A stretch of DNA of 64,000 nt. It comes from a virus. The stretch covers positions 1-64,000 of the IMG/VR virus record IMGVR_UViG_3300020198_000887, one strand, 5' to 3'. A program made the translations under genes and the position numbers. Positions 3,717-58,277 of this stretch are shown here, piece after piece (position 1 is the first letter of the stretch; each line of letters begins with the position of its first letter). The notes under the pieces were generated by a model. That model was not told the origin of the DNA and searched no databases. It was given only the letters and a program-made list of their open reading frames with translations.

Positions 3717-3792
3717 GCCCCTGTAGCTCAGTTGGTAGAGCGATTCACTTAAAGTGAGGATGATGTGGGTTCAAATCCTGTCGGGGGCCCCA
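3717..3792 (+). tRNA. tRNA with Thr-like class I body but anticodon loop CTTAAAG (UAA); function uncertain
   Basis: GCCCCTG/CGGGGGC + CCCA; canonical D and T arms; short variable loop. Confidence 0.65.
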
Positions 3793-12333: not shown

Positions 12334-12924
12334 ATGCCATCATTAATTCCAATGGTTGTAGAACAAGAAGCAAGGGGTGAACGTTCGTATGATATTTACA
12401 GTAGACTACTTAAAGACCGTATCATCATGTTAGATACTGCGGTGGATGAGCATTCCTCTAGTATATTAGTAGCGCAGTTATTGTTCTTAGAAAGCCAAAA
12501 CAACGATGATATTCAATTTTACATTAATAGCCCAGGAGGAGTAATTACGGCTGGGATGGCAATTTATGATACAATGCAATTCATTAAACCCGATGTATCC
12601 ACTATTGTTATGGGTCAAGCATGCTCAATGGGGTCGTTCTTGGCACAAGCAGGTGCACCTGGTAAACGATACATGTTGCCAAATGCAAGACACATGATTC
12701 ATCAACCAAGTGGTGGTGCACGTGGTATGCAAAGTGATATTGAAATTCAATATAAAGAAATAACGAAAATGAAACAGATTTTAACACAATTATATGTTGA
12801 CCACAACACTGCAGGTAAGACATATTATGATTTTGAACGGGACATGGACCGCGATACATTTATGAGTGCGCACGAAGCATTGGCTTATGGGCTCTGTGAT
12901 GAAATTGTAACTAAACGCGATTAA
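12334..12924 (+). CDS. clpP: ATP-dependent Clp protease proteolytic subunit
   Basis: [25 protein letters not shown] (Ser), MIHQP (His), DRDTFM. Confidence 0.96.
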
Positions 12925-24100: not shown

Positions 24101-27100
24101 CGGGTTAATTGTCGACGCAATGGCTATTGACCTTGTAACAGGCGGCACATGGCAATCTATCAACGCCGGTAAAAGTTATTATAAAAATGCAAGTTCTCAC
24201 GCAATTGCAATTGGTACACAATTTAGTGAAACAATAGACGGCATCGAATTTGTTAAAGGGTTGGGATTACAAGTTTTAACTCAAACCACTGCTAGTCGGT
24301 ATCAAACATTATTCACACAAACATTTGATAGTGTAAACCATGCGTCTATAAATGCGAATGATACTTTCATTTATAACATGGAAACCATTACAAACATAAT
24401 CAAATTTGGGGTCGGGGCCGCCCCCACGCCAACATTTGGCAGTGGTATTTGGAATATTGTGATTGATAATGGTGGCAATGGATATGTTGATCAAGGTTCA
24501 CCATTGAATAACGATATTATACCAGCAAAAGCATTAATTGGTACTGATTCATTGGCATACTCTTCTATTGTCAAGTATATACCAGAGAGTGCACCCGGGG
24601 TTGATACCATCCAAGTTAGAATGACTAAGCCTGGGTTATATACGGTTGGTGAACAAGTTGAATTTGGTGAAACTGTACGTGATCTTAACATCACTATTTT
24701 TGTAGAAAGTGGGGTGTATTATGAAGACTACCCAATTAGATTACCCGCAAATTGCTCTATTAAAGGGGATGATATCAGAAGAACCATTATTAGGCCACGT
24801 GACCGTGTCTCACAATCACCATGGCGTAAAATATTCTTCTATCGTGACGCAATAGTTGATGCAATGGAAGTCGGGGTGGTCAATTATACTGGACCGAACT
24901 ATGCACCCAACACTAACATAACACTTAGCGGTTCATCAGAAAAAATCATTGTAACTTTAGCAAATGGCCAAGCGTCATCTACCTGGATTGGAAAAGTTAT
25001 TACTGACAACAACATAGTAAAACGTGGTAAAGCTATTATCGATTCAGTAAGTGGCAACTTTATGAATTGTTCAGTAATATACCCATTCAGTACTATCGGG
25101 GTTCTTAATACTGGGGACTGGTTCATATATGATTCTATTAACTATGGACGACATTATTTAACTAATCCATTAGATATTACTAGTCCGTCCAAAAATAACA
25201 AAGACATTGATGTATTCCTATGTAATGATGCAACCCGTATTTCCAATATTACATTTCAAGGACATGGTGGATTTGCAATGGTTCTTGACCCTGGTGGCCA
25301 GATTAAAACTAAATCACCGTATGGTCAAGATTGTTCATCATTTACCCAAAGCACCAATAAAAAACGGTTTGCTGGCGGGCAATATGTGGATGGGTTTGCT
25401 GGTCGCTTAACTGGAACTATAACCGATATTGCAGACAATGGTATAACACTAACAGTGGTTGGTGGTCCTAATAGTGGGTTGGATATTCGCCCTCCACACC
25501 CACCATGTGCATTTTATGTACAAGGCCAACGATATCAAGTAGATGACATTGTAAGTTTTGATGCATCAACTGCAACGGTTGTGATGACACTAAATGTCGC
25601 AACACCATACAATGCAGCAGATTCATATAATAATTCAAAATGTTCACGTGATGTCGGGTTGATTATTGATGCAATTGGATATGATATGGTATTGGGTTCA
25701 AACTTCCAGTCAGTTAAAGCTGGCTTATCATATCTTCGTTCGTATTCGAATACAGTTATTAATAGACAAAAAATTCAAACAATTGCTGGTATTAATAAAG
25801 CAAAAGAATTGGCTAATGCAACATCATCCAATTCCAGTGTGCAATCTGCAATAAATGATAGAATGAATATTATTATGTCTATTATTGAACACGGAATTAC
25901 AAGTATACCCGCAATTACGTATCCAACACCAGTTGGGGCAAGCGAAGATTCGGTCAAAGCTAAAGATATACTAGTTGCCAATCGAAAATTCATTCAAACT
26001 GAAATTACCGCATGGATCTCTAGCAATTATGCTGTCAAATTAATCCCAAACTACAATGCACTAACATGTCAGCGTGATGTAGGATATATTCTTGATGCAA
26101 TGGTGTATGATTTATTTTATGGTGGGAATAGTCAAACTAGGGATTCGGCTGAAGCATACTGGCGGATTTCTGGAACTGCAACCAGCTATATTATTGGTGA
26201 AGAATCTGTTACTATTGCAGCATATACTAGATTAAAAACGATTATACAATCTATAGTTGCGGGGACATCCATCACCAAATCATCTGGTAATACAAGAACG
26301 CAAGTGACTGATAACCCCCCAACTAATCCAAGTTCTTTCAATACTATACTATCATCATTGAGTGATATATTGATAGATTATATACCAGACCACAGTTATA
26401 CTAGTGGAACAGCTGATTATCCAACTATTACACAACAATCTAGTAGTCTACAAACTGCCAGAACCGCTATTTTAACGGCGAAACCAACTATTCAATCATC
26501 TGTAATCTCTTTCTTAAACAGTGGAGGTGGCTTAAAAATAAACATTGAAATGGGTGGCAATAAATCCATGATAGCAAATGATTTTGCCATGATTAATGAC
26601 CTCGGATACGCAATTATCGCTACCAATGGGGCAGTTTCTGAACAAATGTCAACCTTTAGCTATTACTGTCACACCCATTTCTGGGCAAACAATGGTGGGC
26701 AAATTCGTGCAATAGCCGGGTCCAATTCACACGGAAAGTATGGCTTGCGGGCATCTGGTTATGATGTAACTGAATTACCAGATTCAGTTACATTAGCTAA
26801 TAATCTAATTCAAACTGCAAGAATTTACAAGCAAGGTGTGGTATCCAATGAAATGACACCAACTGCAACAACACAATCATTGGCATTATGGATAATAGGG
26901 TATGAGTACGAACCACTGAACGGGTGTGAAGTTGAAATAGATCACACTGTTTTTAATGGGGGTATTTCCAGATACGAAGCTAACTCCATTGAACATACTA
27001 ATATTACAATTAGTGGGCAAAATGTTCTTAAATTATATTTAAACACATCTGGTAATAATGGAACATCAACAACCGGGTTACATACCGAATTATACCATGG

Positions 27101-30100
27101 CCAACTAGTAATCATTCGATCATTGCGAAATGTTAAATTTAATAATATATCCAATGTTCAGCCAACTAGACCAAGTACAGCATTGCAATACAGCGATAAG
27201 TTGGCGGATATATATCGTGTTACTTCATACCATTTGACTAACTCAACTGGTGAAGTATTACCAAATAACGTTGCAATTCTTCAAAGTGACACCGCGTTTG
27301 ATTATTTTAAAATTACAACAGATATTTCTAATATCAATACAGTTGATCCATCTGACCCAAGTAAAACACAGGGATCTACGGTTGGGGACACCAAAATTGC
27401 AGTATTACATATAAGTCAGCAATCAACAATCGACCAACTTAACAAAGGAACATATATTACAGCATGGAATGGTCGACTACATCGTATATTAGGTTATGTC
27501 AGTCCTGAAGTCATTGCTACAGCTGATGTCGTAAGTGGAAATACTAACAGTACAGCCGTAATTGTGAACAATGTAATTGGGGTTATCGAAGTTGGTGATG
27601 TAGTAAATTGCATTGGAATTACCAATGGACAAACGGTTACCAACATATCATACAACAGTGACACACAACAAACTACTGTCACATTAAGTGCAGCACCCAC
27701 CGCGATTCCATCTGGAAATATAACGTTTGGTATAGCAAGTAATGGATATATTGACATAGATCCAACTGCCATAATTAATAATGCGGGTGATGGGAGTGGG
27801 GTTAGTGCATTAACATTTAAAAATAAAACATCATCACCAGGTAATACATTATATAAATTAGTAACATTTGATATACCATATAATAGACATCAGTTGTACC
27901 CACCAGTAGATAGTTATATTACAATTTCTAATCAAACAACAGATGGGTTTAATAGGTCTGCTCAGGTAGTTGATGTCACAAGTAACACACAACTTACCGT
28001 CACAACAACCTCTGGCTTACTGATTGGTATGACCGTGACCATTTCATCAACTGCTGTAACTGTTAGTGGTGGATTTGGTACAACTATACTAACAGTAAAT
28101 TCAGTCAACGGTGGTATTCAAATAGGGGATTATGTTAGAGGGACGGGATTTGATGAAACACAATATGTAACTGGTGTATCTACTATAGATACTACCACTA
28201 CCATTACGTTAAATACGCCACCAGTTACCTCACCTAGTGGAACGTTGACCTTTGTTAGCGCAAACCGCTCGATTATACAATCAATTGATGACGCAAATAA
28301 GTTTACCGTTAGTCCAGCGTGTTGGGTACCAAGTGGGTGTACAGTTAACGCATCCGTTGTGACATCTGTTAAAAACATCACCATAACTAATGGTGGTACT
28401 GGGTACACATTACCACCTATCATTACATTTATTGGGGGCGGTGCAGAAATCAATGCTATTGCTACCTGTACAATTAGCAATGGCAGTATTGATACGGTAA
28501 CATTAGTGAGTCCTGGATACAACTATACCAGCACACCTAGTATTCAATTGAGTTATGGTGATGCCGTCTTAACTGCCGAGCTTACTGATAATGTGAATGT
28601 AGCTGGAACTGCGTCAGTAGGTGTTTCCACTGCTACAATAACTACTTTATACCAGGCAGATCCAGGTGACTTTATTATAGGAACACAACGAACAGCTTCT
28701 GGGGTTGTCAGTAAAAGTGGGGATGGGCCGTACAGTATAACATTATCATTCACATCAACTACCGCACCCGCGATTAACAAATTTTATAGGGTATCCGGTA
28801 ATAGTAATTCCTTATACAATGGGTTCTGGAATTGTAGTGCTAGTACTAGCACTAGTATTACGCTGGAATATCCATTGGATCCTGGTACATTTGCGACTGG
28901 AATAACACACATAACAGAAGAAGGTACTACCGCAATAAGTTCTGTAATAGGTATTAGTAAGCCATTTGATTCAGTTACGGCAACCGTGTTAAGAGCGGGA
29001 TATACATCCGGTGCTTCCGCACAAATAACAACCCGTATTAGTTCGTGTCGAGCCACTAATCATGACTTCCTGGATATTGGAACCGGCAGTTATTCCACTA
29101 CCAATTATCCATATCAAATTTATGGAAATCCAGCAATTAGCCGTCAATCCGAAAATGAAATTCAAGAAGATGGTGTTGGTCGTTGTTTCTACACTTCCAC
29201 CGACCAAAATGGGGTATTCCGGGTTGGTAGATACTTTACTGTTGACCAGGGTACCGGAACGGTCACACTCAGTACTAACATTGCATTATCAAATGTAGAT
29301 GGTCTCGGATTTAAACGTGGGGTTGTTGTTTCTGAATTCTCGTCTGATACGTCAATGACAAACAACACACCTGATGTGATCCCAGTACAAAGTGCTATAC
29401 GTGGATATATTGATAAACGATTGGGTATAGATCATAATAACCAACCAATATTACAAACGGATTTAATCGGTGCTGGGTATTTGGCGCTGGATGGATCATT
29501 ATCAATGAAATCAGCCCTAAACATGGGTAAATTCAAAATCACCAATTTAGCGACCCCTACGGCAAGTACAGATGCTGCCACCAAGCTGTACGTTGATCAT
29601 GCAATATCAGGCAACGAGCAAATTTTTTCCGGTGTTATTGGTGATGTACTATTTACTTACAATGATACTGGGATTGTGGTAACATCGGCAATTGGGGCTA
29701 ATAAAGTTGTTAATTCAATGATTAGTCCAACTGCGGCAATTCAACAAAGTAAACTTTCATTGAATTATGCAACAACACGGTTAAATGCAACTGGAATCAC
29801 ATCCTCTGATTTGGGAATAGCATCGTTCGATACCGCAAATTTCACAATAACAAATGGATGGGTTGGGATAAAACCTAACTCTATTACCAAATCACAAATG
29901 GCACCAATTGGTAATGGCTCCATTCTTGGAAATTTTAGCGGGATTGCAGCAAATCCAATAGAAGTTACCGCAGGGACAGTCGTTACACAAGGTGATGGTA
30001 TTAAAAATACTGCATTTACCGCCAGTGGATTAATGACTGTTGCATATGATGGTTCTAATACACTCAATAATGCATATTCAGTAACATTAACAACCACAAC

Positions 30101-30896
30101 TGGGCAAGCAAATCGCATCGTCAAAACTGGTGCTAATGGTGAAATTGATGTTTCACAACTAAAAATCGATAATTATAAAATAATTGACACAAGTACCGGT
30201 CCATTGACCGTGACATTTACCACCCCGGGTGGGTATGACTTCTTGTCTGCATCTGGTACAACTGGGTCAAATACCACGGTAATCTCGACATGTTCGATGG
30301 ATTTTACTGGTGGAACTGTTAAAGTTCGTGATTTTACCACGGGTGCAACCAGCACCACCGGTACCATAACAGGGCATTGGATAATTGGAAGCTCAAGTCA
30401 AGTTGATTTTACAAATGGTATATTAAAAACAACTACATTAACTACTGGTGCTGCTGCAACAAGTGGTACCATTACTGGTAACTGGATTTTGTCACCAGGT
30501 AGTAAAATGCAAGCTACTTACGCTGACTTGGCAGAATATTATGAGGGTGATTTTGATTATGCGCCAGGAACGGTTATGGTATTTGGTGGTGATAAGGAAG
30601 TCACTAACGCATCTACAATAAATGACACTCGGTTAGCTGGTGTTGTAACAACAAATCCTGCATATGTATTAAATGCTGAACAATCTGGAATTAAAGTTTG
30701 TATAGCATTGATTGGACGAACACCGTGTAAAGTTATCGGTAAAATTAAAAAAGGCGATTTATTAACCACCTCAAATACCCCCGGATACGCTATTAAAGCG
30801 GCTGACCCAAAATTGGGGTCTATAATTGGAAAAGCATTGGAAGATAAAGACACTGGTGAAGCTGGTGTTATTGAGATTGCAGTAGGGAGGGCATAG
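21165..30896 (+). CDS. giant baseplate/tail-associated protein (3243 aa)
   Basis: gp9/gp10-like N-terminus (IDIGVQGNDGTGDSIRESFRKVNENF), CxRD-type helical repeats, C-terminal ADLAEYY...GKALED intramolecular-chaperone-type domain. Confidence 0.8.
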   Translation: MAKQIIDIGVQGNDGTGDSIRESFRKVNENFNEIYSIFGAGGTIKFTNLDDAPSSYGVNQLIMSNTTGTSLTARSIIAGAGIDINKSSNSQLVISADVANLAGDASPQLGGALNTNHFAIGKLSDPSPELVNAFNIAWPNSTTTIDELPVTLGYANRTYVKTSESGFVSGPLRVRNEPIEANTTDKDYDSSLSGNYLSSEVMPRKDTVRRTGDTMAGKLYLNDHPAPLDGYGTPTGANDLQAATKFYVDNTTFTSNVNLFVSTSGDDLQLKSPAGKEGRFWQYAYKSVGAAALQAENLINLSSNEPGPYKQRISYTTGHDQTFSTIQSVTLTGGNSANAGYTNAYDLLQSNKEFIQRETIAYINKKYVNKFDYDKPKYKLNIQTILDAIGYDIVLDTTYNSYRIAASYFDEANTEVLTNQLIQTIDAIKYTKEQLVNYSYSTINLQSYIDNVINALCFDFAFQSNYQSVQVGILFESANTNLNKSEINAVLLDLKSKLIVLPSVLMSPQIVSSINDNINIILDIIVSGTIPNVKMPSNKGTTTGKTSAKDLLLNNISFIQAEIIGFLSAEFPTVIYDKPTVRQDIKHIVWSITYDLLYGGNTQSIYAGTHYLLTSIQNAPHDKSAAIHAAIGYINTLAQIIIINGSLPLVYQQSVKQYKNETFNNGSDASVSISQNISIIQNIVELNTNYTIIPPSISSIGTILTNARTEILNKKSSYKNEAVDYVNNNFAVINNLAITSKITNLFDIIINTLTTGIGILSSPIFISPSTLSSGYENARQAIIANINFITDETVAWVTSAYPNFDYNGNPVTGQATCKRDIKYILEAIAYDITYGGNSASIHAAKKYWSNNVTVIPNEQITTILAIGHIQTMVALLSQNITVTPTFSSTPQVRNTAWSNGSDASATITELFTIIKDIIETNSEYNVQYPSLTNYDSVLTSTRQLILDTKETVSVNTIQYLDTTFTGSFNYDESSCFRDIGLIVDAMAIDLVTGGTWQSINAGKSYYKNASSHAIAIGTQFSETIDGIEFVKGLGLQVLTQTTASRYQTLFTQTFDSVNHASINANDTFIYNMETITNIIKFGVGAAPTPTFGSGIWNIVIDNGGNGYVDQGSPLNNDIIPAKALIGTDSLAYSSIVKYIPESAPGVDTIQVRMTKPGLYTVGEQVEFGETVRDLNITIFVESGVYYEDYPIRLPANCSIKGDDIRRTIIRPRDRVSQSPWRKIFFYRDAIVDAMEVGVVNYTGPNYAPNTNITLSGSSEKIIVTLANGQASSTWIGKVITDNNIVKRGKAIIDSVSGNFMNCSVIYPFSTIGVLNTGDWFIYDSINYGRHYLTNPLDITSPSKNNKDIDVFLCNDATRISNITFQGHGGFAMVLDPGGQIKTKSPYGQDCSSFTQSTNKKRFAGGQYVDGFAGRLTGTITDIADNGITLTVVGGPNSGLDIRPPHPPCAFYVQGQRYQVDDIVSFDASTATVVMTLNVATPYNAADSYNNSKCSRDVGLIIDAIGYDMVLGSNFQSVKAGLSYLRSYSNTVINRQKIQTIAGINKAKELANATSSNSSVQSAINDRMNIIMSIIEHGITSIPAITYPTPVGASEDSVKAKDILVANRKFIQTEITAWISSNYAVKLIPNYNALTCQRDVGYILDAMVYDLFYGGNSQTRDSAEAYWRISGTATSYIIGEESVTIAAYTRLKTIIQSIVAGTSITKSSGNTRTQVTDNPPTNPSSFNTILSSLSDILIDYIPDHSYTSGTADYPTITQQSSSLQTARTAILTAKPTIQSSVISFLNSGGGLKINIEMGGNKSMIANDFAMINDLGYAIIATNGAVSEQMSTFSYYCHTHFWANNGGQIRAIAGSNSHGKYGLRASGYDVTELPDSVTLANNLIQTARIYKQGVVSNEMTPTATTQSLALWIIGYEYEPLNGCEVEIDHTVFNGGISRYEANSIEHTNITISGQNVLKLYLNTSGNNGTSTTGLHTELYHGQLVIIRSLRNVKFNNISNVQPTRPSTALQYSDKLADIYRVTSYHLTNSTGEVLPNNVAILQSDTAFDYFKITTDISNINTVDPSDPSKTQGSTVGDTKIAVLHISQQSTIDQLNKGTYITAWNGRLHRILGYVSPEVIATADVVSGNTNSTAVIVNNVIGVIEVGDVVNCIGITNGQTVTNISYNSDTQQTTVTLSAAPTAIPSGNITFGIASNGYIDIDPTAIINNAGDGSGVSALTFKNKTSSPGNTLYKLVTFDIPYNRHQLYPPVDSYITISNQTTDGFNRSAQVVDVTSNTQLTVTTTSGLLIGMTVTISSTAVTVSGGFGTTILTVNSVNGGIQIGDYVRGTGFDETQYVTGVSTIDTTTTITLNTPPVTSPSGTLTFVSANRSIIQSIDDANKFTVSPACWVPSGCTVNASVVTSVKNITITNGGTGYTLPPIITFIGGGAEINAIATCTISNGSIDTVTLVSPGYNYTSTPSIQLSYGDAVLTAELTDNVNVAGTASVGVSTATITTLYQADPGDFIIGTQRTASGVVSKSGDGPYSITLSFTSTTAPAINKFYRVSGNSNSLYNGFWNCSASTSTSITLEYPLDPGTFATGITHITEEGTTAISSVIGISKPFDSVTATVLRAGYTSGASAQITTRISSCRATNHDFLDIGTGSYSTTNYPYQIYGNPAISRQSENEIQEDGVGRCFYTSTDQNGVFRVGRYFTVDQGTGTVTLSTNIALSNVDGLGFKRGVVVSEFSSDTSMTNNTPDVIPVQSAIRGYIDKRLGIDHNNQPILQTDLIGAGYLALDGSLSMKSALNMGKFKITNLATPTASTDAATKLYVDHAISGNEQIFSGVIGDVLFTYNDTGIVVTSAIGANKVVNSMISPTAAIQQSKLSLNYATTRLNATGITSSDLGIASFDTANFTITNGWVGIKPNSITKSQMAPIGNGSILGNFSGIAANPIEVTAGTVVTQGDGIKNTAFTASGLMTVAYDGSNTLNNAYSVTLTTTTGQANRIVKTGANGEIDVSQLKIDNYKIIDTSTGPLTVTFTTPGGYDFLSASGTTGSNTTVISTCSMDFTGGTVKVRDFTTGATSTTGTITGHWIIGSSSQVDFTNGILKTTTLTTGAAATSGTITGNWILSPGSKMQATYADLAEYYEGDFDYAPGTVMVFGGDKEVTNASTINDTRLAGVVTTNPAYVLNAEQSGIKVCIALIGRTPCKVIGKIKKGDLLTTSNTPGYAIKAADPKLGSIIGKALEDKDTGEAGVIEIAVGRA

Positions 30897-41489: not shown

Positions 41490-42065
41490 ATGTCAAGAGA
41501 AAATTACAACAATATGACATCAGCAGAAAAAGCAGGTGAAGACTTTATGTCAAAAAATTGGAGACCAATGATGGCAATGACATACATGTTAACATGTTTG
41601 TTTGATTTTATTATTGGACCTATCCTTTATAATATATTACAATTCTATAATCCAGGACAACATTTAGATATGTGGCAACCATTAACTTTACAGGGCGGTG
41701 GATTGTATCACATTGCAATGGGGGTTGTATTAGGTATTACTGCACACGGAAGAACACAAGAAAAAATAAATGGGGCAGATGGTTCACTAGTCTCTAGTTT
41801 TACTAATGTAATATCACGTCAACATAATAGCCAACCAGTAGCACCAATTCAAGCTGCCCAAAATTTCCCAGCAGCAACCCACGGATTCACTCAAGAACCG
41901 ACAGTAAGTGCTAATAAATTTGGAAACGTTGTTCCACAACCAGTAGCACCAATTCAAGCTGCCCAAAATTTCCCAGCAGCAACCCACGGATTCACTCAAG
42001 AACCGACAGTAAGTGCTAATAAATTTGGAAACGTTGTTCCACAACCAGAAGAACCGATTCTATAA
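41490..42065 (+). CDS. holin-like membrane protein
   Basis: NWRPMMA...FDF..P...WQPLTLQGGGLYHIAMG..LG...GRTQEK; lysis-cassette position. Confidence 0.65.
   Translation: MSRENYNNMTSAEKAGEDFMSKNWRPMMAMTYMLTCLFDFIIGPILYNILQFYNPGQHLDMWQPLTLQGGGLYHIAMGVVLGITAHGRTQEKINGADGSLVSSFTNVISRQHNSQPVAPIQAAQNFPAATHGFTQEPTVSANKFGNVVPQPVAPIQAAQNFPAATHGFTQEPTVSANKFGNVVPQPEEPIL
41832..42047 (+). repeat. perfect 105-nt coding tandem duplication
   Basis: QPVAPIQAAQNFPAATHGFTQEPTVSANKFGNVVP x2; copies start at 41832 and 41937. Confidence 0.92.
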
Positions 42066-42075
42066 GGAGAGTTTT

Positions 42076-42333
42076 ATGAAATTTTTAACATTATTACTTG
42101 TATTTTTTGTATCAACACCAATTATTGCGGCGGAATGTGCCCCACCCGTTGATAAAATTACCGAAGAAAAAGCAGTTCCTGCTAAGAAAAAGCACAAAAA
42201 ATATAAAGGAACAATAATTCCATCTGAAGTAAAAAAAGTTGAACAAAAAGTAGCAGCACCAGTTGTTGAAGCACCTGCCAAGAAAAAACACAAAAAATAC
42301 GAAGGAACTAAAATCCCTGACGTAAAAAAATAA
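42076..42333 (+). CDS. small secreted Lys-rich protein
   Basis: signal peptide; PAKKKHKKYxGT x2; AAGGAG RBS. Confidence 0.7.
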   Translation: MKFLTLLLVFFVSTPIIAAECAPPVDKITEEKAVPAKKKHKKYKGTIIPSEVKKVEQKVAAPVVEAPAKKKHKKYEGTKIPDVKK

Positions 42334-42342
42334 GACATATAT

Positions 42343-42376
42343 TTGACAGGTTAACCATTACATAGTATTATAAATA
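42343..42376 (+). promoter_or_regulatory. overlapping sigma70-type and late promoters before dnaJ
   Basis: TTGACA-17-TATTAT overlapping TATAAATA. Confidence 0.55.
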
Positions 42377-42403
42377 ATATATAATATTTAACCTGTTTTT
42401 ACT

Positions 42404-43243
42404 ATGACTGATTACTATACAACCCTAGGCGTTGACAAACACGCAACGCAAACTGAGATAAAAAAAGCATATAGACGATTGGCGAATACCCACCACCCAG
42501 ATAAAGGTGGTGATCAATCCAAATTCAAGGATATATCGGTTGCATATGATACACTTGGCGATCCTGAAAAAAGGTCGCACTATGATAGCCGACAATCAAA
42601 TGACTCAGCTGGATTTACCACTCATCACTTCCGTGACTTCCATGACATATTTGGGCACCATTTTGGTGGGAACCCATTTTTTAATGATGCATTTAGACGA
42701 CAACACGTTCAAAAAAACAGGGACTTAAATCTACAGTGCACTATTTCACTGGGTGATTCGTTCTCGGGGAAACAATTAGAAGCAAAATACACGTTACCAA
42801 GTGGAAAACCACAAAGTGTGATAATTAATGTTCCTGCGGGAGTAAAACATGGTGATAATATAAAATATCCTGGACTTGGTGATGATTCAATATCAAACAT
42901 ACATCGCGGTGATTTGAATGTAACTATTTTAGTATCGGCAGATGAAAAATTTGACAGACGTGGTGATGATCTGTACACTACGGTTGAAATTAACGCAATT
43001 GAAGCAATGATTGGGTGTAAAAAACAAATAAAATCCATTACAGGGGAATCAATGATTATTGACATCAGAGCTGGGATCGAACCTGGTGCAGAATTCGCGA
43101 ATAATGGTGCTGGATTCAAAAATTTACAATCCCATCAAGTAGGTAGATTTGTATCAGTAATTAAAATAGTACCACATGCAATAACTAATCCAGAAATAGT
43201 TGATAAACTACGACAAATTTTAACACAAATCAATTCTCAATAA
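42404..43243 (+). CDS. dnaJ: DnaJ-family co-chaperone (type II, no zinc finger)
   Basis: DYYTTLG, HPD motif, G/F-rich linker, DnaJ C-terminal domain. Confidence 0.9.
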   Translation: MTDYYTTLGVDKHATQTEIKKAYRRLANTHHPDKGGDQSKFKDISVAYDTLGDPEKRSHYDSRQSNDSAGFTTHHFRDFHDIFGHHFGGNPFFNDAFRRQHVQKNRDLNLQCTISLGDSFSGKQLEAKYTLPSGKPQSVIINVPAGVKHGDNIKYPGLGDDSISNIHRGDLNVTILVSADEKFDRRGDDLYTTVEINAIEAMIGCKKQIKSITGESMIIDIRAGIEPGAEFANNGAGFKNLQSHQVGRFVSVIKIVPHAITNPEIVDKLRQILTQINSQ

Positions 43244-43259
43244 CAATACAGGAAATATA

Positions 43260-44819
43260 ATGGTAGAGCCAAGTAACGAACTAGAAGAAGTTTTCAGTAA
43301 AGCTGCAGATACCGTAAAAAAACTACACCATGAATATATAACAATAGAACATGTATTGTTCGCTATGTTATCAAACCAAAGGTTTGTTGATATAATTAAT
43401 AATTTCGGTTCAAACGCAGAAGACTTACGAAAACTGGTTACAAACCACTTGCAAACTAAATGCGAGGACATTACGACCACCGAACAAGTTACCCACCCAA
43501 AGAAAACAGCCGCGTTTGAACGGCTGCTAAATAAAGCATTTACACAAGTAATTTTTAATAATCGACAACGTGTGGAAATCACTGATGCCTTTTTAATGAT
43601 GTTAAATGAAAAACGTAGTTGGGCATTTTTCTACATTTCACAAGTTGGTATTGAAAAAGAAAAATTTGCTGATTATTTAAATACAACAGCAGATGCGGCC
43701 GATGAAGAAGCCCCAGATGAGCTTGACCCCCGCCACATTAAATCGTTACAAGCATATACAACTGACCTCAACGACCAAGTGTTGAAAGGAAAAATAGACC
43801 CAGTGATTGGACGAGTTGATGAACTTGAAAATATCGCATTGGCACTTGGTCGCCGATCTAAAAACAACGTGATTTTAGTTGGGGACCCAGGTGTTGGTAA
43901 AACTGCGATTGCAGAAGGTCTTGCATACAATATTGTAAATGGTGGAGTTCCAGATTTTTTGAAAGATTATACTGTTTATAATTTAGATATATCGGCAATG
44001 CTTGCCGGAACAAAATATCGGGGTGATTTTGAAGAACGCTTTAAACAAGTAATTAAAGCACTTGATAAAAAAGGAAAAACAGTTCTTTTTATTGATGAAG
44101 CACATATGATCAGTGGTGCAGGTGCATCGGCAAGTTCAGCAAATGACCTTGCTAATATGATGAAACCTGCACTAAGCAAGGGTAATATTAAAGTCATTGC
44201 ATCAACTACTTGGGAAGAATATCGCAAACACTTTGAAAAAGATCGCGCATTAATGCGTCGATTCCAACGTATTACGGTCGATGAACCATCACAAGAAATG
44301 ACTTTAAAAATCTTAAAAGGATTAAAAAAATATTATGAATCACATCATAATGTAAAAATTAAAACTGATGCATTGCAATCTTCAATAAAATTGTCAGTAA
44401 AATATCAAGCTGATAAAAAACTGCCAGATAAAGCAATTGATTTAATTGATTGTGCCTGTTCACGATTCAATTTAAAATTGGCGGATGACCGAATTATTAC
44501 AGAACGTGAAATTCAATATGAATTAGCGAAAATGATTAATATTCCAGAAGAACAAATTATGGAAACTGAGAGTAATACATTAGTCGATTTGCAAGAAAAA
44601 CTTGAAGCAGATGTTTACGGTCAAGATGCTGCGTTAACTGAAGTGGTTGATAAAATTATAGTTGCACAAGCCGGGTTAAAACCAGATAATAAACCAATCG
44701 GGTCTTTTGTATTTATGGGTCCAACCGGCTGTGGTAAATGTTTAAGTTACGATCAAGAAATAACTTTACAAATTCCCCAAGATATGTACAATTTTGCTAT
44801 CAAAAATAACTTAATTTAG
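43260..44819 (+). CDS. clpA: ClpA-like AAA+ ATPase, N-terminal part + 26-aa split-intein N-fragment (44739-44816)
   Basis: Clp N domain, GDPGVGKT, FIDE, then GPTGCGK|CLSYDQEITLQIPQDMYNFAIKNNLI*. Confidence 0.9.
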   Translation: MVEPSNELEEVFSKAADTVKKLHHEYITIEHVLFAMLSNQRFVDIINNFGSNAEDLRKLVTNHLQTKCEDITTTEQVTHPKKTAAFERLLNKAFTQVIFNNRQRVEITDAFLMMLNEKRSWAFFYISQVGIEKEKFADYLNTTADAADEEAPDELDPRHIKSLQAYTTDLNDQVLKGKIDPVIGRVDELENIALALGRRSKNNVILVGDPGVGKTAIAEGLAYNIVNGGVPDFLKDYTVYNLDISAMLAGTKYRGDFEERFKQVIKALDKKGKTVLFIDEAHMISGAGASASSANDLANMMKPALSKGNIKVIASTTWEEYRKHFEKDRALMRRFQRITVDEPSQEMTLKILKGLKKYYESHHNVKIKTDALQSSIKLSVKYQADKKLPDKAIDLIDCACSRFNLKLADDRIITEREIQYELAKMINIPEEQIMETESNTLVDLQEKLEADVYGQDAALTEVVDKIIVAQAGLKPDNKPIGSFVFMGPTGCGKCLSYDQEITLQIPQDMYNFAIKNNLI

Positions 44820-44849
44820 TAAAATGTTCTAAAATTACAAGAGGTCTAT

Positions 44850-46043
44850 ATGATTACAACTACAATACCAATTGGTAAATTTTTTACAATACTTGAACAA
44901 TATGAAAAACTTCATTTTGAACCAGAACAAGAACAATTTTTAAATTCAACGGTTAGAATTCCGGATGAGAATGGTAATTGGATCCAAGTTACTGCTGCTA
45001 TCACAAAACAGGACGATGGATTGTCAATTAAATTTAATAATGGTGATGAAATTAAGGCGGCCCGTAAACATTTAGTGTATGATGGGAATTCATGTGTATT
45101 TCTTGAATCGTTAAACATAGGAGACCATATTCAGAAAGCAACAGGTGAAATTATAGAAGTTGTATCAATTGACACAATTTCTGATAAGACTTTTTTTGAT
45201 TTGACCGTGGATTCGGATACACATTTATATCAAACAAGTAATAAAATTATACACCATAATACGGAAACTGCAAAAGCATTGGCAAAACACCTTGGTTCTA
45301 CCCTGGTACGATTTGATATGTCCGAATACCAAGAAAAACATAGTGTTAGTAAACTAATCGGTTCACCACCAGGTTATGTTGGGTTTGAAGAAAATGCTGG
45401 GTTGTTGATTACACAAATTCAAGAACACCCAAACGCAGTATTGTTGTTAGATGAAGTTGAAAAAGCACATCCTGATGTTGCAACAGTGTTATTACAAGTA
45501 ATGGATAATGGATTTATTACTGGGTCAAATGGAAAGAGGGCGGATTGTCGTAATATCGTATTAATTTTAACAACCAATGCTGGTGCACAATCCGCTGAAA
45601 AAAATGCAATTGGTTTTGGTAAACAAGATAAGGATTATTCGGATGAAGATTTGAAAAAATTCTTTACGCCAGAATTTAGAAATAGATTAGATGGTATTAT
45701 CACATTTAATAAACTTGGAAAAGACTCAATGACAAAGGTAGTTAACAAATTTATTGATGAACTACGCGAACAAGTAAAGGAAAAATCAATACGTATAAAA
45801 ATAACAAAGGATGCATCTAACTGGTTGTTAGAAAATGGGATTGACCCAAAAATGGGTGCCAGACCACTGCAGCGTGTTATTGATAAAGAAATTAAGCGAA
45901 ATCTTGCTAAAATGATGTTGTTTGGTGATTTAAAAAATGGTGGCATACTAACAATTGGTGTTGACAACGATAATATTTCACTGACAGCTGCATCAAACAA
46001 TATTAAAACAATCTCGTCAGAAGACATTGAAATGGTTATGTAA
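44850..46043 (+). CDS. clpA: split-intein C-fragment (137 aa, 44850-45260) + ClpA-like C-terminal part
   Basis: AARKH, FFDLTV, IIHHN|TETAKALA...RFDMSEY...LLDEVEKAH...GARPL; AGAGG RBS. Confidence 0.9.
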   Translation: MITTTIPIGKFFTILEQYEKLHFEPEQEQFLNSTVRIPDENGNWIQVTAAITKQDDGLSIKFNNGDEIKAARKHLVYDGNSCVFLESLNIGDHIQKATGEIIEVVSIDTISDKTFFDLTVDSDTHLYQTSNKIIHHNTETAKALAKHLGSTLVRFDMSEYQEKHSVSKLIGSPPGYVGFEENAGLLITQIQEHPNAVLLLDEVEKAHPDVATVLLQVMDNGFITGSNGKRADCRNIVLILTTNAGAQSAEKNAIGFGKQDKDYSDEDLKKFFTPEFRNRLDGIITFNKLGKDSMTKVVNKFIDELREQVKEKSIRIKITKDASNWLLENGIDPKMGARPLQRVIDKEIKRNLAKMMLFGDLKNGGILTIGVDNDNISLTAASNNIKTISSEDIEMVM

Positions 46044-46098
46044 TCAGTCGAATAAGCCCATGTAATGGATAAATATATAATATTACTTGGGCTTGACT

Positions 46099-46473
46099 AT
46101 GCGTATTACGGAATTATTAGAAGGTAAAACATTTAACGAAATGGACTTTGTCACACATACTGTTGACAAAGGTAAAAGAGAACTTAATTTTGATATTATG
46201 GACGACTTAATTTTCTTCATGAATAATGATGACGACGCATACCGTCGTCATTTATATCCAGTCGTATCAAAATGTGTGAATAAACATAACAATGATAAAA
46301 AGACATCTGCAAAAATGTTTGCAGATGCGGTAAAAGAATGCTATAGTATGTATATTAATGAATATCCAATTCGTGGAATGTCATCATCAATCACCGATGA
46401 ATGTCTTAAAGAAACATGCAAAAAGTTACACGATTTGGTCTGCCAACACATTGACAATGACAAATATAAATGA
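46099..46473 (+). CDS. hypothetical phage protein
   Basis: ORF after GATAAATA; MRITELLE N-terminus. Confidence 0.7.
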   Translation: MRITELLEGKTFNEMDFVTHTVDKGKRELNFDIMDDLIFFMNNDDDAYRRHLYPVVSKCVNKHNNDKKTSAKMFADAVKECYSMYINEYPIRGMSSSITDECLKETCKKLHDLVCQHIDNDKYK

Positions 46474-47120
46474 GTGGAAATGCAATTACCAATGCTAAAC
46501 CAATATCAAAACACGATTATCATCTTCTAACACACAACTTAAAGTTGTTACTTCCAAATGGCCTTCCACTATATCCATTTGGAAGTGCAGGCAAAAAAGA
46601 AATCAGCGGAGATGTAGATTTTTTTATCGACGCTGATGAACTGTTAACATTTATTCCATCATCAACCCACCTAAATCTGCTAGATTGTAGGGAACACTTA
46701 TACAATTTTTTTATCAACAACGGATTACACGCTTCCAGGACCGGAATTAACGTGCATGTTGGTGTTACTTTGCATAATAAAAACATTCAAGTAGATTTAA
46801 CAATAGTTAAAAATGCCGCCAAAATCGCATATCTTCATGCCCATGTATACGATAATGAACAGGTAACGGGCAAAACTATTGTTAGTATTTGGTGTGATTT
46901 AGCAAATCTTACATCACCTGAATTAATGATAAGTCCCTATAAAGGATTACTAAATCGTACTACGAGAGACCTTATTACACTGGATCCAACAGAAATAGCG
47001 AAAATTATTATTGGCCCATCTGCAACTGAATATGATATGCGGTCGCCATCAAGGTTACTAGCTGCTGTCAAAGATAATCCACTTAAATATCAACACATAA
47101 AACAAACATACTTCAAATGA
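46470..47120 (+). CDS. Pol-beta superfamily nucleotidyltransferase-like protein
   Basis: FGSAGKKEISGDVDF (GS..DxD) and IQVDL third Asp. Confidence 0.65.
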   Translation: MSGNAITNAKPISKHDYHLLTHNLKLLLPNGLPLYPFGSAGKKEISGDVDFFIDADELLTFIPSSTHLNLLDCREHLYNFFINNGLHASRTGINVHVGVTLHNKNIQVDLTIVKNAAKIAYLHAHVYDNEQVTGKTIVSIWCDLANLTSPELMISPYKGLLNRTTRDLITLDPTEIAKIIIGPSATEYDMRSPSRLLAAVKDNPLKYQHIKQTYFK

Positions 47121-54379: not shown

Positions 54380-54536
54380 TATGGGAATTAACAAAGACTA
54401 CGACTTTGAAGCATGTGAAACTTGTCCACCACTTTACGAATTTGCAGCTAGGTGTTCATGTAAAATAGAAGACGTACTGGTAGATATATCAAAAGAACTC
54501 AATGAAGGTATCTCTTTATGGGAGGATTCTGAATGA
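54380..54536 (+). CDS. small Cys-containing ORF (~51 aa) abutting the polymerase start; ends approximate
   Basis: MGINKDYDFEACETCPPLYEFAARCSC...; GGAG RBS; ends in an ATGA overlap. Confidence 0.4.
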
Positions 54537-57175
54537 GTTACGTAGATGCAATGTTTGACCGCGATTCGGACTTCATCAAAGTGGTAGAACGAATTAATGG
54601 AAAACGGGTATTCAAAGAATACCCAGTACGCCATACATTTTATTATGAAGATACCCGTGGTAAATATAAATCCATTTATGATACACCAGTCACAAAGGTA
54701 GTATGCAAAACAACCAAGGACTTCAGAAAAGAATTATCAATTAACAACAATAAAAAATTGTTTGAAGCTGATTTAAATCCAGTGTTTGTATGCCTAAGTT
54801 CCCAATATCAACATCAGGATCCCCCATCCCTAAATGTAGCGTGGCTCGACATTGAAGTGCGATTTGACCCAGAACGTGGCTATGCATCACCAGATGATGC
54901 ATTTATGCCAATTACTGCGGTCGCGGTTCATTTACAATGGCTAGATACTCTTATATGCCTTGCCGTCCCCCCACCAACATTGACAATGGATGAAGCAGTC
55001 CTGTTGGTGGAAGAATTTCCGAATACACACTTATTCAACACAGAAGCAGAATTATTAGATGCATTTTTGGATCTAATTAAAGATGCTGATGTATTAAGTG
55101 GGTGGAATAGCGAAGGGTTTGATATTCCATATCTCGTAAACCGGGTCACAAAGGCATTGAGTAAAAATGATACTCGTAGATTTTGTTTATGGAATCAATT
55201 CCCAAAACGCAGGGAATATGAAAAATATGGTAAAGAGGCCGTCACGTATGACTTAGTCGGGCGAGTTCATTTAGATAGCTTAGAATTATACAGAAAATAT
55301 ACCTATGAAGAACGGCATAGCTATCGGTTAGATGCTATTGCAGAATATGAATTGGGTGATAGAAAAACTGCATATGAAGGAACGTTAGACCAATTATATA
55401 ACAATGATTTTAAAAAATTTATTGAATATAATAGGCAAGATACCATGCTGTTAGAAAAACTTGACAAAAAATTAAAGTTTTTAGATTTAGCAAATGCAAT
55501 TGCACATGAAAATACTGTATTATTACAAACTACAATGGGCGCGGTCGCTGTTACTGAGCAAGCAATTATAAATGAAGCACATGACAGAGGATTCGTTGTA
55601 CCAAATCGTAATAGACAAGATACAAATGACGGTATGGCGGCTGGAGCATATGTTGCACACCCTAAAGAAGGGATACATGATTGGATCGGTTCCCTTGACA
55701 TTAATTCACTATACCCATCAGTTATTCGAGCATTAAATATGGGGCCAGAAACCATTGTTGGGCAACTATCACCCGCAATGTCTAACTCTTTTTTAAAAGG
55801 TCAATTAGCAAAAGGCAAATCAATTACCGCTGCGTGGGAAGGACGATTTGGTTCGTTGGAATATGATGCTGTTATGAATCGTGAGGTTGATACTTATATA
55901 ACAATCGAATGGGAAGAAGGCGGTTCGGATACAATTAGTGCAGCTAATATTTATAAATTAATTTATGAGTCAAACCAACCATGGATGCTGAGTGCTAATG
56001 GCACTATTTTTACACATGAACGGGAAGGTATCATACCAGGATTATTGAAACGATGGTATTCTGAACGTAAAGAGATGCAGAAAAAATTAAAAGAAGCCAT
56101 TACTTCAGGCGACAAAGAACAAGAAGAATACTGGGATAAACGACAACTAGTCAAAAAAATTAATTTGAATAGTTTATACGGTGCTATTCTTAATCAAGGC
56201 TGTCGGTTTTTTGATAAGCGAATTGGTCAATCAACTACACTAACTGGTAGACAAATTGCCAAACATATGGCAGCAGAAGTGAATAAAATTATTACTGGTG
56301 AATATAATCATGTTGGGAAATCTATTATATATGGTGATAGTGTAACTGGTGATTCAATGATTATATCCAACCAAGGTAGAATTACTATCGAGGAGTTATT
56401 TAATCGGTGTAATAACAACTACACATCAGGATCAAAAGAATATGGTAACAACGACGATATAACAGTAATGGGGTTTACTAATTCACCAGAAATGTGTAAT
56501 ATTCATTATGTAATGAGGCATTATACAACCAAAGATTTGTATGAAATAACATTAGAGAATGATAAACAAATTACTGTAACACAAGATCATAGTATAATGG
56601 TTATTAGAAATAATAGTATGATTGAATTAAAACCTACTGACATATCTGAATCAGATCTGTTTATATGCTTATCAAATGATATGAAAGAAGTAGAATTAGT
56701 ACAATATAAACAAATTGTCTGTAAAGGTTCAATTACTGATTATGTTTATGATATAAGCATCAATGGTGATAACCATATGTTTTTTGCGAATGAATGTTTA
56801 GTTCATAATACTGATAGTTGTTCTGCTGATACTATTATTAGAAGTAATTGGGGAGATTTGACCATTGAACAGCTATTCAATGCTGGTCAAATGTTTAGTA
56901 ATGAACAGACGGAACATGGTGTTAAGGAATACTCTTCTCATATGGACTTACAAGTGGTTTCATATGATGATTCTACTAATCAATCATATTATGGAAATGT
57001 AAATTACATCTATCGTCATAAAGTTTCAAAAGAACGCTGGGAGATAGAAGATGAACTTGGTCACAAAATAGTAGTGACTGGTGATCATTCAATAATGGTT
57101 GAGCGTAATGGTAAGTTGATAGAAATAAAACCACGGGATATTTTAGATACTGATATATTAATATGTCTTAATTGA
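54533..57175 (+). CDS. polB: family B DNA polymerase N-terminal part, with cis mini-intein (56339-56809) and split-intein N-fragment (56816-57172)
   Basis: Exo I DIE, Exo II WNSEGFD, Exo III YNRQD, DINSLYPS, KINLNSLYG, YGD|SVTGD...VHN|TD|SCSAD...TGDH...CLN*. Confidence 0.93.
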   Translation: MSYVDAMFDRDSDFIKVVERINGKRVFKEYPVRHTFYYEDTRGKYKSIYDTPVTKVVCKTTKDFRKELSINNNKKLFEADLNPVFVCLSSQYQHQDPPSLNVAWLDIEVRFDPERGYASPDDAFMPITAVAVHLQWLDTLICLAVPPPTLTMDEAVLLVEEFPNTHLFNTEAELLDAFLDLIKDADVLSGWNSEGFDIPYLVNRVTKALSKNDTRRFCLWNQFPKRREYEKYGKEAVTYDLVGRVHLDSLELYRKYTYEERHSYRLDAIAEYELGDRKTAYEGTLDQLYNNDFKKFIEYNRQDTMLLEKLDKKLKFLDLANAIAHENTVLLQTTMGAVAVTEQAIINEAHDRGFVVPNRNRQDTNDGMAAGAYVAHPKEGIHDWIGSLDINSLYPSVIRALNMGPETIVGQLSPAMSNSFLKGQLAKGKSITAAWEGRFGSLEYDAVMNREVDTYITIEWEEGGSDTISAANIYKLIYESNQPWMLSANGTIFTHEREGIIPGLLKRWYSERKEMQKKLKEAITSGDKEQEEYWDKRQLVKKINLNSLYGAILNQGCRFFDKRIGQSTTLTGRQIAKHMAAEVNKIITGEYNHVGKSIIYGDSVTGDSMIISNQGRITIEELFNRCNNNYTSGSKEYGNNDDITVMGFTNSPEMCNIHYVMRHYTTKDLYEITLENDKQITVTQDHSIMVIRNNSMIELKPTDISESDLFICLSNDMKEVELVQYKQIVCKGSITDYVYDISINGDNHMFFANECLVHNTDSCSADTIIRSNWGDLTIEQLFNAGQMFSNEQTEHGVKEYSSHMDLQVVSYDDSTNQSYYGNVNYIYRHKVSKERWEIEDELGHKIVVTGDHSIMVERNGKLIEIKPRDILDTDILICLN

Positions 57176-57178
57176 TAA

Positions 57179-57328
57179 TTCGATAAGAGAAATAGTGCTA
57201 TCCGTCAAGGATTCGATGTATATGTTATTTGGGAATCTGATTGGAATAAAAATAAAAATAGTATAATAGAAAATATAAAAGATTGGTGGAATAATGGCAA
57301 TAACAAAACTAAAAATCAAATCAATTAA
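57179..57328 (+). pseudogene. C-terminal remnant of a Vsr/DUF559-like homing endonuclease
   Basis: FDKRNSAIRQGFDVYVIWESDWNKNKNSIIENIKDWW with no start codon, between the split-intein halves. Confidence 0.65.
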
Positions 57329-58277
57329 ACATCTAGGCAATTTTGATGATGAATACGTATATGACATTGGGATGAAAAATGAAGCACATCCTTGGTTTTT
57401 TGGGAATAATATTTTAATTCATAATTCCTGTTATTTCTCAGCATATTCTACGTTAAAAACTGATATTGACAATGGGACTATTCCGTGGAGTAAAGAAGAT
57501 ATATCTGCATTCTACGATGGAATAGGAAACCTGGTAAATGGTACCTTTCAACGATTTATGCTAGATGCATTTAACTGCCCTGCATCACGGGGTGAAGTTA
57601 TCAAAGCAGGGCGTGAAATCGTTGGGGTTAAGGGATTATTTATTACCAAAAAACGGTATGCAGTGTTAGTATATGATAAAGAAGGTAAACGAAAAGACAC
57701 CAATGGTAAACCTGGTGAAATCAAAGCAATGGGGTTGGATTTAAAGAGATCAGATACCCCAGAATACATGCAAACATTTTTAAGTGACGTCCTTGAAATG
57801 GTATTAGATGGGGTACCAGAATCCGAGGTATTAGATACAATTAAAAATTTTAGATCTAGTTTCAAAGCATTGGATGGGTGGGAAAAAGGATCACCTAAAC
57901 GTGCTAATAATATAACTAAATATCAAAAATTAGAAGAAAAACATGGAAAATCTAATTTACCAGGCCATGTTAGAGCCAGTATAAATTGGAATACCTTGAA
58001 AAGAATTTTTAATGACAAATATTCCATGAATATTACAGATGGTGCAAAAGTAATTGTGTGCAAATTAAAACCAAATCCATTGGGTTTCACAAGTGTAGCA
58101 TATCCAGTAGATGAATTAAGATTGCCGCAGTGGTTTAAAGATTTGCCGTTTGACCACGATGAAATGGAAGCTACCATAATTGACAAAAAGGTAGAAAACT
58201 TGATTGGTGTTCTTAACTTAGATTTACAAAGTACCAATGAAAAAACTACCTTCAGTAAATTGTTTTTCTTCAAATAA
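57294..58277 (+). CDS. polB: split-intein C-fragment (44 aa, to 57425) + family B DNA polymerase C-terminal part
   Basis: YVYDIG...FFGNNILIHN|SCYF...KKRYA...MGLDLKRSDTP. Confidence 0.93.
   Translation: MAITKLKIKSIKHLGNFDDEYVYDIGMKNEAHPWFFGNNILIHNSCYFSAYSTLKTDIDNGTIPWSKEDISAFYDGIGNLVNGTFQRFMLDAFNCPASRGEVIKAGREIVGVKGLFITKKRYAVLVYDKEGKRKDTNGKPGEIKAMGLDLKRSDTPEYMQTFLSDVLEMVLDGVPESEVLDTIKNFRSSFKALDGWEKGSPKRANNITKYQKLEEKHGKSNLPGHVRASINWNTLKRIFNDKYSMNITDGAKVIVCKLKPNPLGFTSVAYPVDELRLPQWFKDLPFDHDEMEATIIDKKVENLIGVLNLDLQSTNEKTTFSKLFFFK

Follow-up and report, generated by a model that had tools for sequence, protein, structure and literature searches.

The window, which is the whole 64,000-nucleotide stretch of DNA analyzed here and the first 64 kb of a 142-kb IMG/VR virus record (IMGVR_UViG_3300020198_000887), carries a clpA gene in two pieces. 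We propose that this gene is very probably interrupted by a naturally and atypically split class-1 intein, inserted in the Walker A motif of the second ATPase domain (D2) of ClpA at GK/T (the slash marks the insertion point). The intein would splice in trans to give a ClpA of 753 residues, and would have originated by way of an endonuclease-like gene that was later lost. If splicing occurs, a phage chaperone-protease motor is added to the proteins that exist only after protein trans-splicing. The N-terminal intein fragment (IntN) is short enough to be made by peptide synthesis, and its family offers many candidates with Cys1, Thr+1 and an IntN of 23-31 residues; few natural inteins with a short N-fragment have been characterized so far (PMC10189870, PMC11766414). 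The understanding of the intein mechanism is unchanged, and such elements are plentiful in phage metagenomes, making the finding only a modest surprise for specialists.

Overall layout of the two-piece clpA gene

The first open reading frame (ORF1, 43260..44819, + strand) encodes 519 residues and ends with GPTGCGK, a Cys-led tail of 26 residues and a stop. Its first 493 residues (43260..44738, + strand) are the ClpA N-extein, which comprises Clp_N, a complete D1 AAA+ module with its lid, and the start of D2 up to the Walker A sequence GPTGCGK. The Pfam domains Clp_N, AAA and AAA_lid_9 are found in this part, together with a match to PHROG 4871 over positions 9-510. The tail (44739..44816, + strand) is the 26-residue IntN, as delimited by its sequence, an alignment of 15 IntN pieces, the secondary structure in an AlphaFold2 (AF2) model and the interface in a model of the complex. 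ORF1 is closed by the tandem stops TAG (44817) and TAA (44820), which occupy 44817..44822 on the + strand. The following spacer of 27 nucleotides (44823..44849, + strand) leaves no room for an endonuclease gene and holds a Shine-Dalgarno-like AGAGG (44840-44844), 5 nucleotides before an ATG.

This ATG opens ORF2 (44850..46043, + strand), which lies in the same frame as ORF1. Its first 137 residues form the C-terminal intein fragment (IntC, 44850..45260, + strand). This fragment supplies the HINT fold with its strand 3 and helix 1 and contains His74 of block B, the block F sequence FFDLTVDSDTHLY and, at its end, IIHHN of block G. The ClpA C-extein (45261..46043, + strand; 260 residues plus stop) starts with Thr+1 and contains the rest of D2 (Pfam AAA_2, 3.7e-44), an IGF tripeptide and the D2-small domain (ClpB_D2-small, 3.4e-24), matching PHROG 4871 over positions 510-758. 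An earlier interpretation made from the letters of the DNA (the sequence-only reading) had described ORF1 as ending in GPTGCGK plus a 26-residue N-fragment with TAG at 44817, and ORF2 as having its own ribosome-binding site and 137 residues of intein followed by TETAKALA; both descriptions proved exact.

Excision of both intein pieces yields GPTGCGK/TETAKALA, with an intact P-loop in a ClpA of 753 residues. Along the profile of PHROG 4871 ('ATP-dependent protease'), the match of the N half stops at position 510, which is also where the match of the C half begins; therefore, the site is a clean insertion point and not a chance break of the ORF. Judging from its domains, namely Clp_N, two AAA+ modules, D2-small and the IGF tripeptide, the spliced product would be a ClpA/ClpC-type class I Hsp100 unfoldase. 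The tripeptide is found at C-extein residue 117, where the ClpP-docking loop is expected; in E. coli, ClpA and ClpX dock ClpP through their IGF/IGL loop. As neither half alone has a complete D2 P-loop, the D2 ATPase activity should depend on splicing. The sequence-only reading had proposed that an atypically split intein interrupts ClpA within the Walker A motif of D2 and that an intact P-loop would require trans-splicing; this is supported by the sequence and by the models described below.

Sequence and structural features of the intein

The catalytic residues do not vary among 15-21 relatives, and the family keeps Cys1, the His of block B, block F, the His-Asn end and Thr+1 unchanged. Cys1 directly follows GPTGCGK and is invariant in the 15 IntN pieces. 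IntC ends with THLYQTSNKIIHHN followed by T, and an alignment of 15 rows revealed that H125, Y127, T129, N131, H136, N137 and T138 are invariant. In block B (N3), His74 of IntC is also invariant, and most family members have Ala or Gly in place of the Thr of the TxxH motif, so that just half of this motif remains. Since this Thr is missing throughout the family, its absence is not a defect of the window copy. The sequence-only reading had listed Thr+1 and the altered block B as oddities of this element, which does not hold, as Thr+1 and the block B His are invariant in the family alignments and the Thr is generally absent.

A family profile was built from 21 relatives and searched against solved structures in the PDB. 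It matched the solved inteins gp41-1 (1e-7), VidaL (4e-7), CatC (5e-7) and Pho RadA (2e-6). The AF2 model of the read-through fusion, in which both stops were read as Gly for the purpose of folding only, has a predicted local distance difference test (pLDDT) score of 89.8 and a predicted template modelling (pTM) score of 0.86. A Foldseek search of the PDB with this model returned inteins or BIL domains as its best 40 or more matches, all with a probability of 1.00, and the top ones include Pho RadA, CDC21-1, VidaL (TMt 0.85), gp41-1 and PolB16. The HINT horseshoe fold is present in the model.

The Pfam Intein_splicing profile gives IntC 21.9 bits (E 1.7e-4) against a cut-off of 35.8, as might be seen if an ordinary gene break or a frameshifted pseudogene had intein-like flanks by chance. 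The probability of such a chance likeness is negligible. The family profile and the fold search each lead to inteins, as does the complex model; 44 related viral loci and 714 protein clusters (E<=1e-10) are found, and excision restores the P-loop exactly. Therefore, the complex model, Foldseek, the family profile and the 714 clusters refute a chance break or pseudogene in practice.

Reality and maintenance of the split

The two ORFs share one frame, with 33 nucleotides from the TAG to the ATG, so the gene could also be read as a contiguous cis intein whose stops would stem from an error of sequencing or assembly, belong to a minor variant or be read through. Readthrough would add a linker of 11 residues, and the fusion folds well in the model. 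In addition, some contiguous relatives (P0007, P0015 and L021; relatives are given by our labels) have a long loop at the same position. Against this stands the presence of two stops in tandem, TAG TAA, and of an AGAGG and ATG belonging to ORF2 itself. No suppressor tRNA was found in the 142-kb record, stop-codon use is standard, and TAA, TGA and TAG all terminate long ORFs in it. The Logan assemblies of two lake-water runs (depth 21.7 and 8.4) cover 44300-45700 with zero differences; therefore, an assembler artefact is ruled out, with the reservation that these runs are possibly the source samples and hence not independent biology. Two further Logan runs, X3 and X4, gave fragments only, none of which covers 44770-45100. 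An apparent joint from 44339 to 45656, with sides of 21 letters, came from the clpA of another organism and was disregarded. The stops, including the TAG at 44817, are identical in the two assemblies that cover them. Readthrough, which the sequence-only reading had named as a route to a cis intein, is unlikely because two stops stand in tandem, no suppressor tRNA was found and each of the three stop codons is in normal use; with the two further assemblies identical, an assembly error is unlikely as well.

The closest relatives also argue for a real split, as they are broken in other frames or by a gene of 1.2 kb. In the ClpA group, L002, L003/L004, L005 and L006 carry IntN pieces that share the design of the window IntN, and the residue at which IntN ends is identical in the window, L002, L003 and L005. 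The halves of L005 are separated by a spacer of 113 nucleotides and lie in another frame, and an ORF of 267-393 residues, on either strand, lies between the halves of L002, L003, L006, L007 and L010. In some relatives whose IntN ends at the same residue as in the window, the intervening gene is 1.2 kb long and endonuclease-like by position. The shared IntN end combined with differing frames, spacers and inserts indicates that the split is older than the separation of these phages from one another and that readthrough cannot be a requirement for it. Taken together, we regard a contiguous intein in the window as very improbable, and a genuine split as the preferred reading.

Comparison of the window with L002, L003, L005 and L006 revealed identities of 53-62% for IntC, 46-58% for IntN and 38-54% for the ClpA exteins. 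The intein pieces are therefore at least as conserved as the exteins, which argues that the element is not dead, since drift or loss would be expected of a dead one.

Modelled association of the fragments and anatomy of the split site

Association of the two fragments was modelled as a two-chain complex, IntN with 24 extein residues against IntC with 28, together with three controls. The model scored 0.77 as against 0.06 for the best control. In a benchmark of the score mark, 58 out of 80 solved complexes reached it, as against 2 out of 110 mismatched pairs; these counts are only rough because our own alignments were used. The runs shared at least 72% of their contacts, with a partner pLDDT of at least 62. 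In the model, therefore, IntN and IntC associate. A HINT-profile search and a complex model had been suggested as checks in the sequence-only reading, and both point to an intein, through the matches to solved inteins and the score of 0.77 against 0.06.

IntN holds motif N1 only, and blocks B, F and G are all located in ORF2. In the AF2 model, IntN forms a beta-strand at residues 7-13 and an extra helix at residues 14-22 with a conserved hydrophobic face. IntC starts with a strand (residues 1-7) and a helix (residues 8-18), which, from our reading of the N1 block, would correspond to strand 3 and helix 1 of ordinary inteins; the split would therefore lie in the loop after strand 2. The confident contacts in the complex model involve Met16, Tyr17, Phe19, Ala20, Asn23, Leu25 and Ile26, which make up one face of the IntN helix. 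IntN also contacts helix 1 and the block F strand of IntC. Both fragments are acidic, with net charges of -2 and -10, and charge complementarity was checked and found to be absent; therefore, association would be hydrophobic. Hydrophobic association has likewise been reported for AceL-TerL (review, PMC11766414).

The hydrophobic pattern of the helix face is seen again in most IntN pieces. In two split relatives, L018 and L043, IntN is only 13-14 residues long and lacks the helix. Of the contiguous relatives, P0012, L019 and L028 have a short loop at the split position, and P0007, P0015 and L021 have a long one. The helix is therefore common and not obligatory. It is missing in the 15-16-residue IntN of PolB16 and VidaL, as well as in three of the six contiguous relatives examined. 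One could speculate, with considerable doubt, that the helix of 13-14 residues at the IntN end is a dedicated docking clamp evolved in the split forms, through which a very short N piece gains high affinity; this would be a new structural solution for S1-type split inteins. If the clamp interpretation is true, a ready family of dozens of natural short-N pairs with Cys1 and Thr+1 is at hand, some of them perhaps orthogonal, as two pairs occur in one ClpA of L010. Splicing might also gate the activity of phage ClpAP by way of the redox state of Cys1; the regulatory switch put forward in the sequence-only reading is likewise speculative.

Proposed mechanism and origin

Based on the sequence and the models, we propose the following course of events. 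The two polypeptides would be translated separately. The IntN beta-strand would then complete the HINT sheet of IntC, with the extra helix packing on IntC helix 1. Cys1, the block B His, the penultimate His, the terminal Asn and Thr+1 would carry out standard class-1 trans-splicing, which would join Lys493 to Thr+1 and free the intein pieces. The resulting ClpA of 753 residues, with the P-loop GPTGCGKTE, would work with the phage's own ClpP. As for the origin, a contiguous mini-intein was most likely invaded, in the loop that follows its strand 2, by a free-standing endonuclease-like gene; the later loss of this gene in the lineage of the window would have left the spacer of 27 nucleotides.

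Several points weigh against an active split intein. The Pfam match to IntC alone is under the curated cut-off, the block B Thr is absent, and the fragments lack the charge complementarity of classical split inteins. The pass of the complex model may reflect memory of, or likeness to, solved split inteins, and the source samples may themselves be the origin of the two assemblies in which the stops were confirmed. A decayed or inactive split intein would account for the missing Thr and the two acidic fragments. In that case the ClpA halves would be non-functional or would work unjoined, for example with the N half, whose D1 module is complete, acting as a D1-only ATPase, or with both halves held together non-covalently by the intein pieces. 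However, no catalytic residue has been lost and none varies within the family. Over a divergence of about 40-60%, the intein pieces have changed no more than the exteins, and the IntN end point is kept in four phages. A decayed element is therefore improbable, and we favor an active trans-splicing intein.

Comparison with known inteins

Similar to the window intein, the PolB16 OarG intein is atypically split, with an IntN of 15 residues and an IntC of 168 residues (PDB 8cpn/8cpo; PMC10189870). Its crystal construct consists of 10 extein residues, the 15-residue IntN and a GSH linker before IntC (PMC10189870). Position 1 of our family profile aligns to residue 29-30 of this fused chain, which is the start of the PolB16 IntC, so that the split position, as worked out from the construct description, is the same in both inteins within one residue. 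PolB16 OarG also shares the phage or metagenome origin and the class-1 HINT fold. However, it has Ser1 and Ser+1, a DNA polymerase host and a dispensable block B His, whereas the window intein has Cys1 and Thr+1, lies within a P-loop, and its block B His is invariant. The window IntN is about 13 residues longer, the extra part being the predicted helix, and the sequence similarity of PolB16 to the family profile is weak (E 1.7e-4).

The TerL inteins AceL-TerL and GOS-TerL, with the consensus Cat-TerL, have an IntN of 25-37 residues and an IntC of 104-115 residues (PDB 6dsl; PMC2677866, PMC11766414). Like the window intein, they are natural short-N split inteins from phage ATPase genes in aquatic metagenomes, with an IntN of similar length; AceL and Cat share Cys1, and the family profile matches CatC (5e-7). 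CatC starts about 20 residues into the window IntC, as CatC residue 7 corresponds to profile position 26. The TerL inteins are thus split after helix 1, whereas the window intein is split before strand 3. They also differ in having Cys+1 and a terminase host in place of Thr+1 and ClpA. From these alignments, the split of the window intein is at the PolB16 (S1-type) site and not at the AceL/GOS-TerL site.

VidaL (PDB 6vgv/6vgw) resembles the window intein in its short IntN (16 residues), natural split and origin in lake-metagenome phages. Ranked by target coverage, it is the top structural match (TMt 0.85, root-mean-square deviation 2.9), with about 15% identity and a profile match of 4e-7. Its IntN lacks the C-terminal helix extension, and its host genes, a helicase and UvsX, differ from that of the window.

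Phage genes in two pieces, each with an intein half, have been described as fractured genes by Dassa et al. in 2009, in eight DNA-metabolism proteins with no Clp protein among them; one terminase intein was 'fractured at an unusual point', with all motifs but N1 in the C part (PMC2677866). The window differs from fractured genes that have an endonuclease gene between their halves, as only 27 nucleotides and no gene intervene. P-loop inteins of cellular ATPases include Pho RadA, MCM/CDC21-1, RFC and DnaB-b (PMC4760082). They share the insertion at Walker A GK/T, and Pho RadA and CDC21-1 are among the top structural matches. However, they are contiguous and mostly found in replication and recombination proteins, whereas the window intein is split and located in a phage chaperone-protease ATPase. 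A phrase search of the literature for an intein in ClpA, ClpB, ClpC, ClpX or PhoH found no paper, and PhoH is listed as an intein host in PMC4760082. The host, the sequence family and the helix on IntN are new here; the short-N split and the P-loop insertion have already been published.

Distribution of the family and its hosts

A search for relatives with the single IntC sequence gave no loci, whereas a pattern search of IMG/VR derived from the IntC alignment revealed 44 related viral loci. Among 1.84 billion representative proteins, the family profile matched 3504 at E<=1e-3, 714 at E<=1e-10 and 58 at E<=1e-30. By our own count from the table, about 120 of the best 150 protein matches have the split form, in which the match begins at residue 1. 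A tblastn search of IntC against 50,697 GenBank phage records gave no match; therefore, the family is known here from uncultured contigs alone. The 44 loci and 714 clusters indicate that short-N split inteins of this kind are common in metagenomes. The rarity of short-N types claimed in the sequence-only reading accordingly stands for characterized inteins and fails for those in nature, given the 714 clusters at E<=1e-10 and the share of split forms among the best matches.

This type of intein sits at GK/T in D2 and D1 of ClpA, in ClpX, PhoH and the gp44 clamp loader, and also in RecA/UvsX-like proteins, superfamily 2 (SF2) helicases and other phage ATPases. The TerL-hosted relatives (L029-L031, L035 and L044) end in HHN/C, that is, with Cys+1. 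Five forms were found at the ClpA D2 site: a contiguous mini-intein (P0012), a LAGLIDADG intein, fractured genes, split forms without an intervening ORF (the window and L005) and a three-piece ClpA. Other contiguous relatives at GK/T are P0007, which is in ClpX, L019, L021 and L028. The relatives thus display every stage of intein evolution at one site, from mini-inteins and LAGLIDADG inteins through fractured and gene-less split forms to seemingly re-fused ones.

ClpA/ClpB-like proteins of about 1260-1305 residues with a large contiguous intein at D2 GK/T were observed in L034, L037-L040 and L042; the LAGLIDADG domain was found in the intein of L034, the only one on which Pfam was run. The three-piece ClpA (L010:148-5188) has short-N split inteins in both Walker A motifs, with an IntN of 24 residues in D1 and 26 residues in D2 and ORFs between the halves of each, of which at least one matches phrog_22677. 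With two intein pairs in one ClpA, the pairs must avoid cross-splicing. P0008 is a ClpA split in D1 only. In the contiguous P0012 and P0015, an internal Met lies exactly at the position where IntC starts in the split forms, and P0015 also keeps a helix of the IntN type; both look like re-fused split inteins or the state just before splitting.

A free-standing ORF of 267-492 residues lies between the halves in L002, L003, L006, L007, L010, L013, L014, L020 and L045. Most of the intervening ORFs tested against PHROGs matched phrog_22677, a family of unknown function (L002:2746-3897, L003:2449-3630, L007:2899-3996, L010:2904-3872 and L020:2478-3956). Pfam gave nothing credible and no nuclease domain on the intervening ORFs of the fractured relatives, and a profile search of these ORFs against the PDB gave a non-significant match to the endonuclease-like 3hrl (E 0.33). 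Several of them end in a G(F/Y)xV..IW-like motif reminiscent of Vsr/DUF559 nucleases. The label of homing endonuclease was not adopted for these ORFs, which are called endonuclease-like by their position and this end motif only.

Source phage and genomic context

CheckV rates the 142-kb record as 37% complete, and it is therefore a fragment of a jumbo phage. The window has a GC content of 34% and four tRNA genes, with nearly all genes on the + strand. The phage is an uncultured freshwater phage whose DNA is found in lake-water metagenomes; the sequencing runs listed as containing it include no RNA run. A DNA search against phages matched only distant ClpA genes of jumbo phages.

A DnaJ-like gene (42404..43243, + strand; Pfam DnaJ and DnaJ_C) is located directly upstream of clpA, and the gene order dnaJ-clpA is kept in L003, L005 and L006. 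A ClpP gene (12334..12924, + strand; PF00574 at 2.2e-76 and 3e-75) encodes the likely partner protease of the spliced ClpA. The phage's own ClpP, the DnaJ-like protein and the IGF tripeptide of the C-extein suggest a phage-borne ClpAP protease with a J-protein. From their head-to-tail arrangement, dnaJ and the N- and C-terminal pieces of clpA are probably co-transcribed. The best promoter-like site in a scan, a consensus match only, is at 42343-42371, upstream of dnaJ, and a consensus-match scan of the + strand from 42000 to 46500 found no terminator-like sites. Promoter-like sites were not enriched over shuffles (27 vs 21.3 +/- 4.3); a site of this kind inside IntN (44765-44792) was therefore rejected as evidence for a separate transcript.

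ARAGORN called a tRNA-Phe with the anticodon AAA at 3717-3792, in a cluster with tRNA-Ser(GCT), tRNA-Met and tRNA-Leu(TAG); this anticodon is unusual, as that of tRNA-Phe is normally GAA. A single ORF of 3243 residues occupies 21165-30896 of the window. The family-B DNA polymerase gene (54533-58277) carries a contiguous intein at residues 614-759 of an 880-residue ORF (Pfam Intein_splicing, 3.6e-19). After a break, the gene continues as a second ORF (57294-58277), which opens with a short canonical IntC ending in LIHN/S. Therefore, the phage has a classical long-N split intein besides the short-N one. A further intein-like match (E 1.8e-5) was found outside the window, at 128006-128218 of the same record, in an ORF of 1010 residues.

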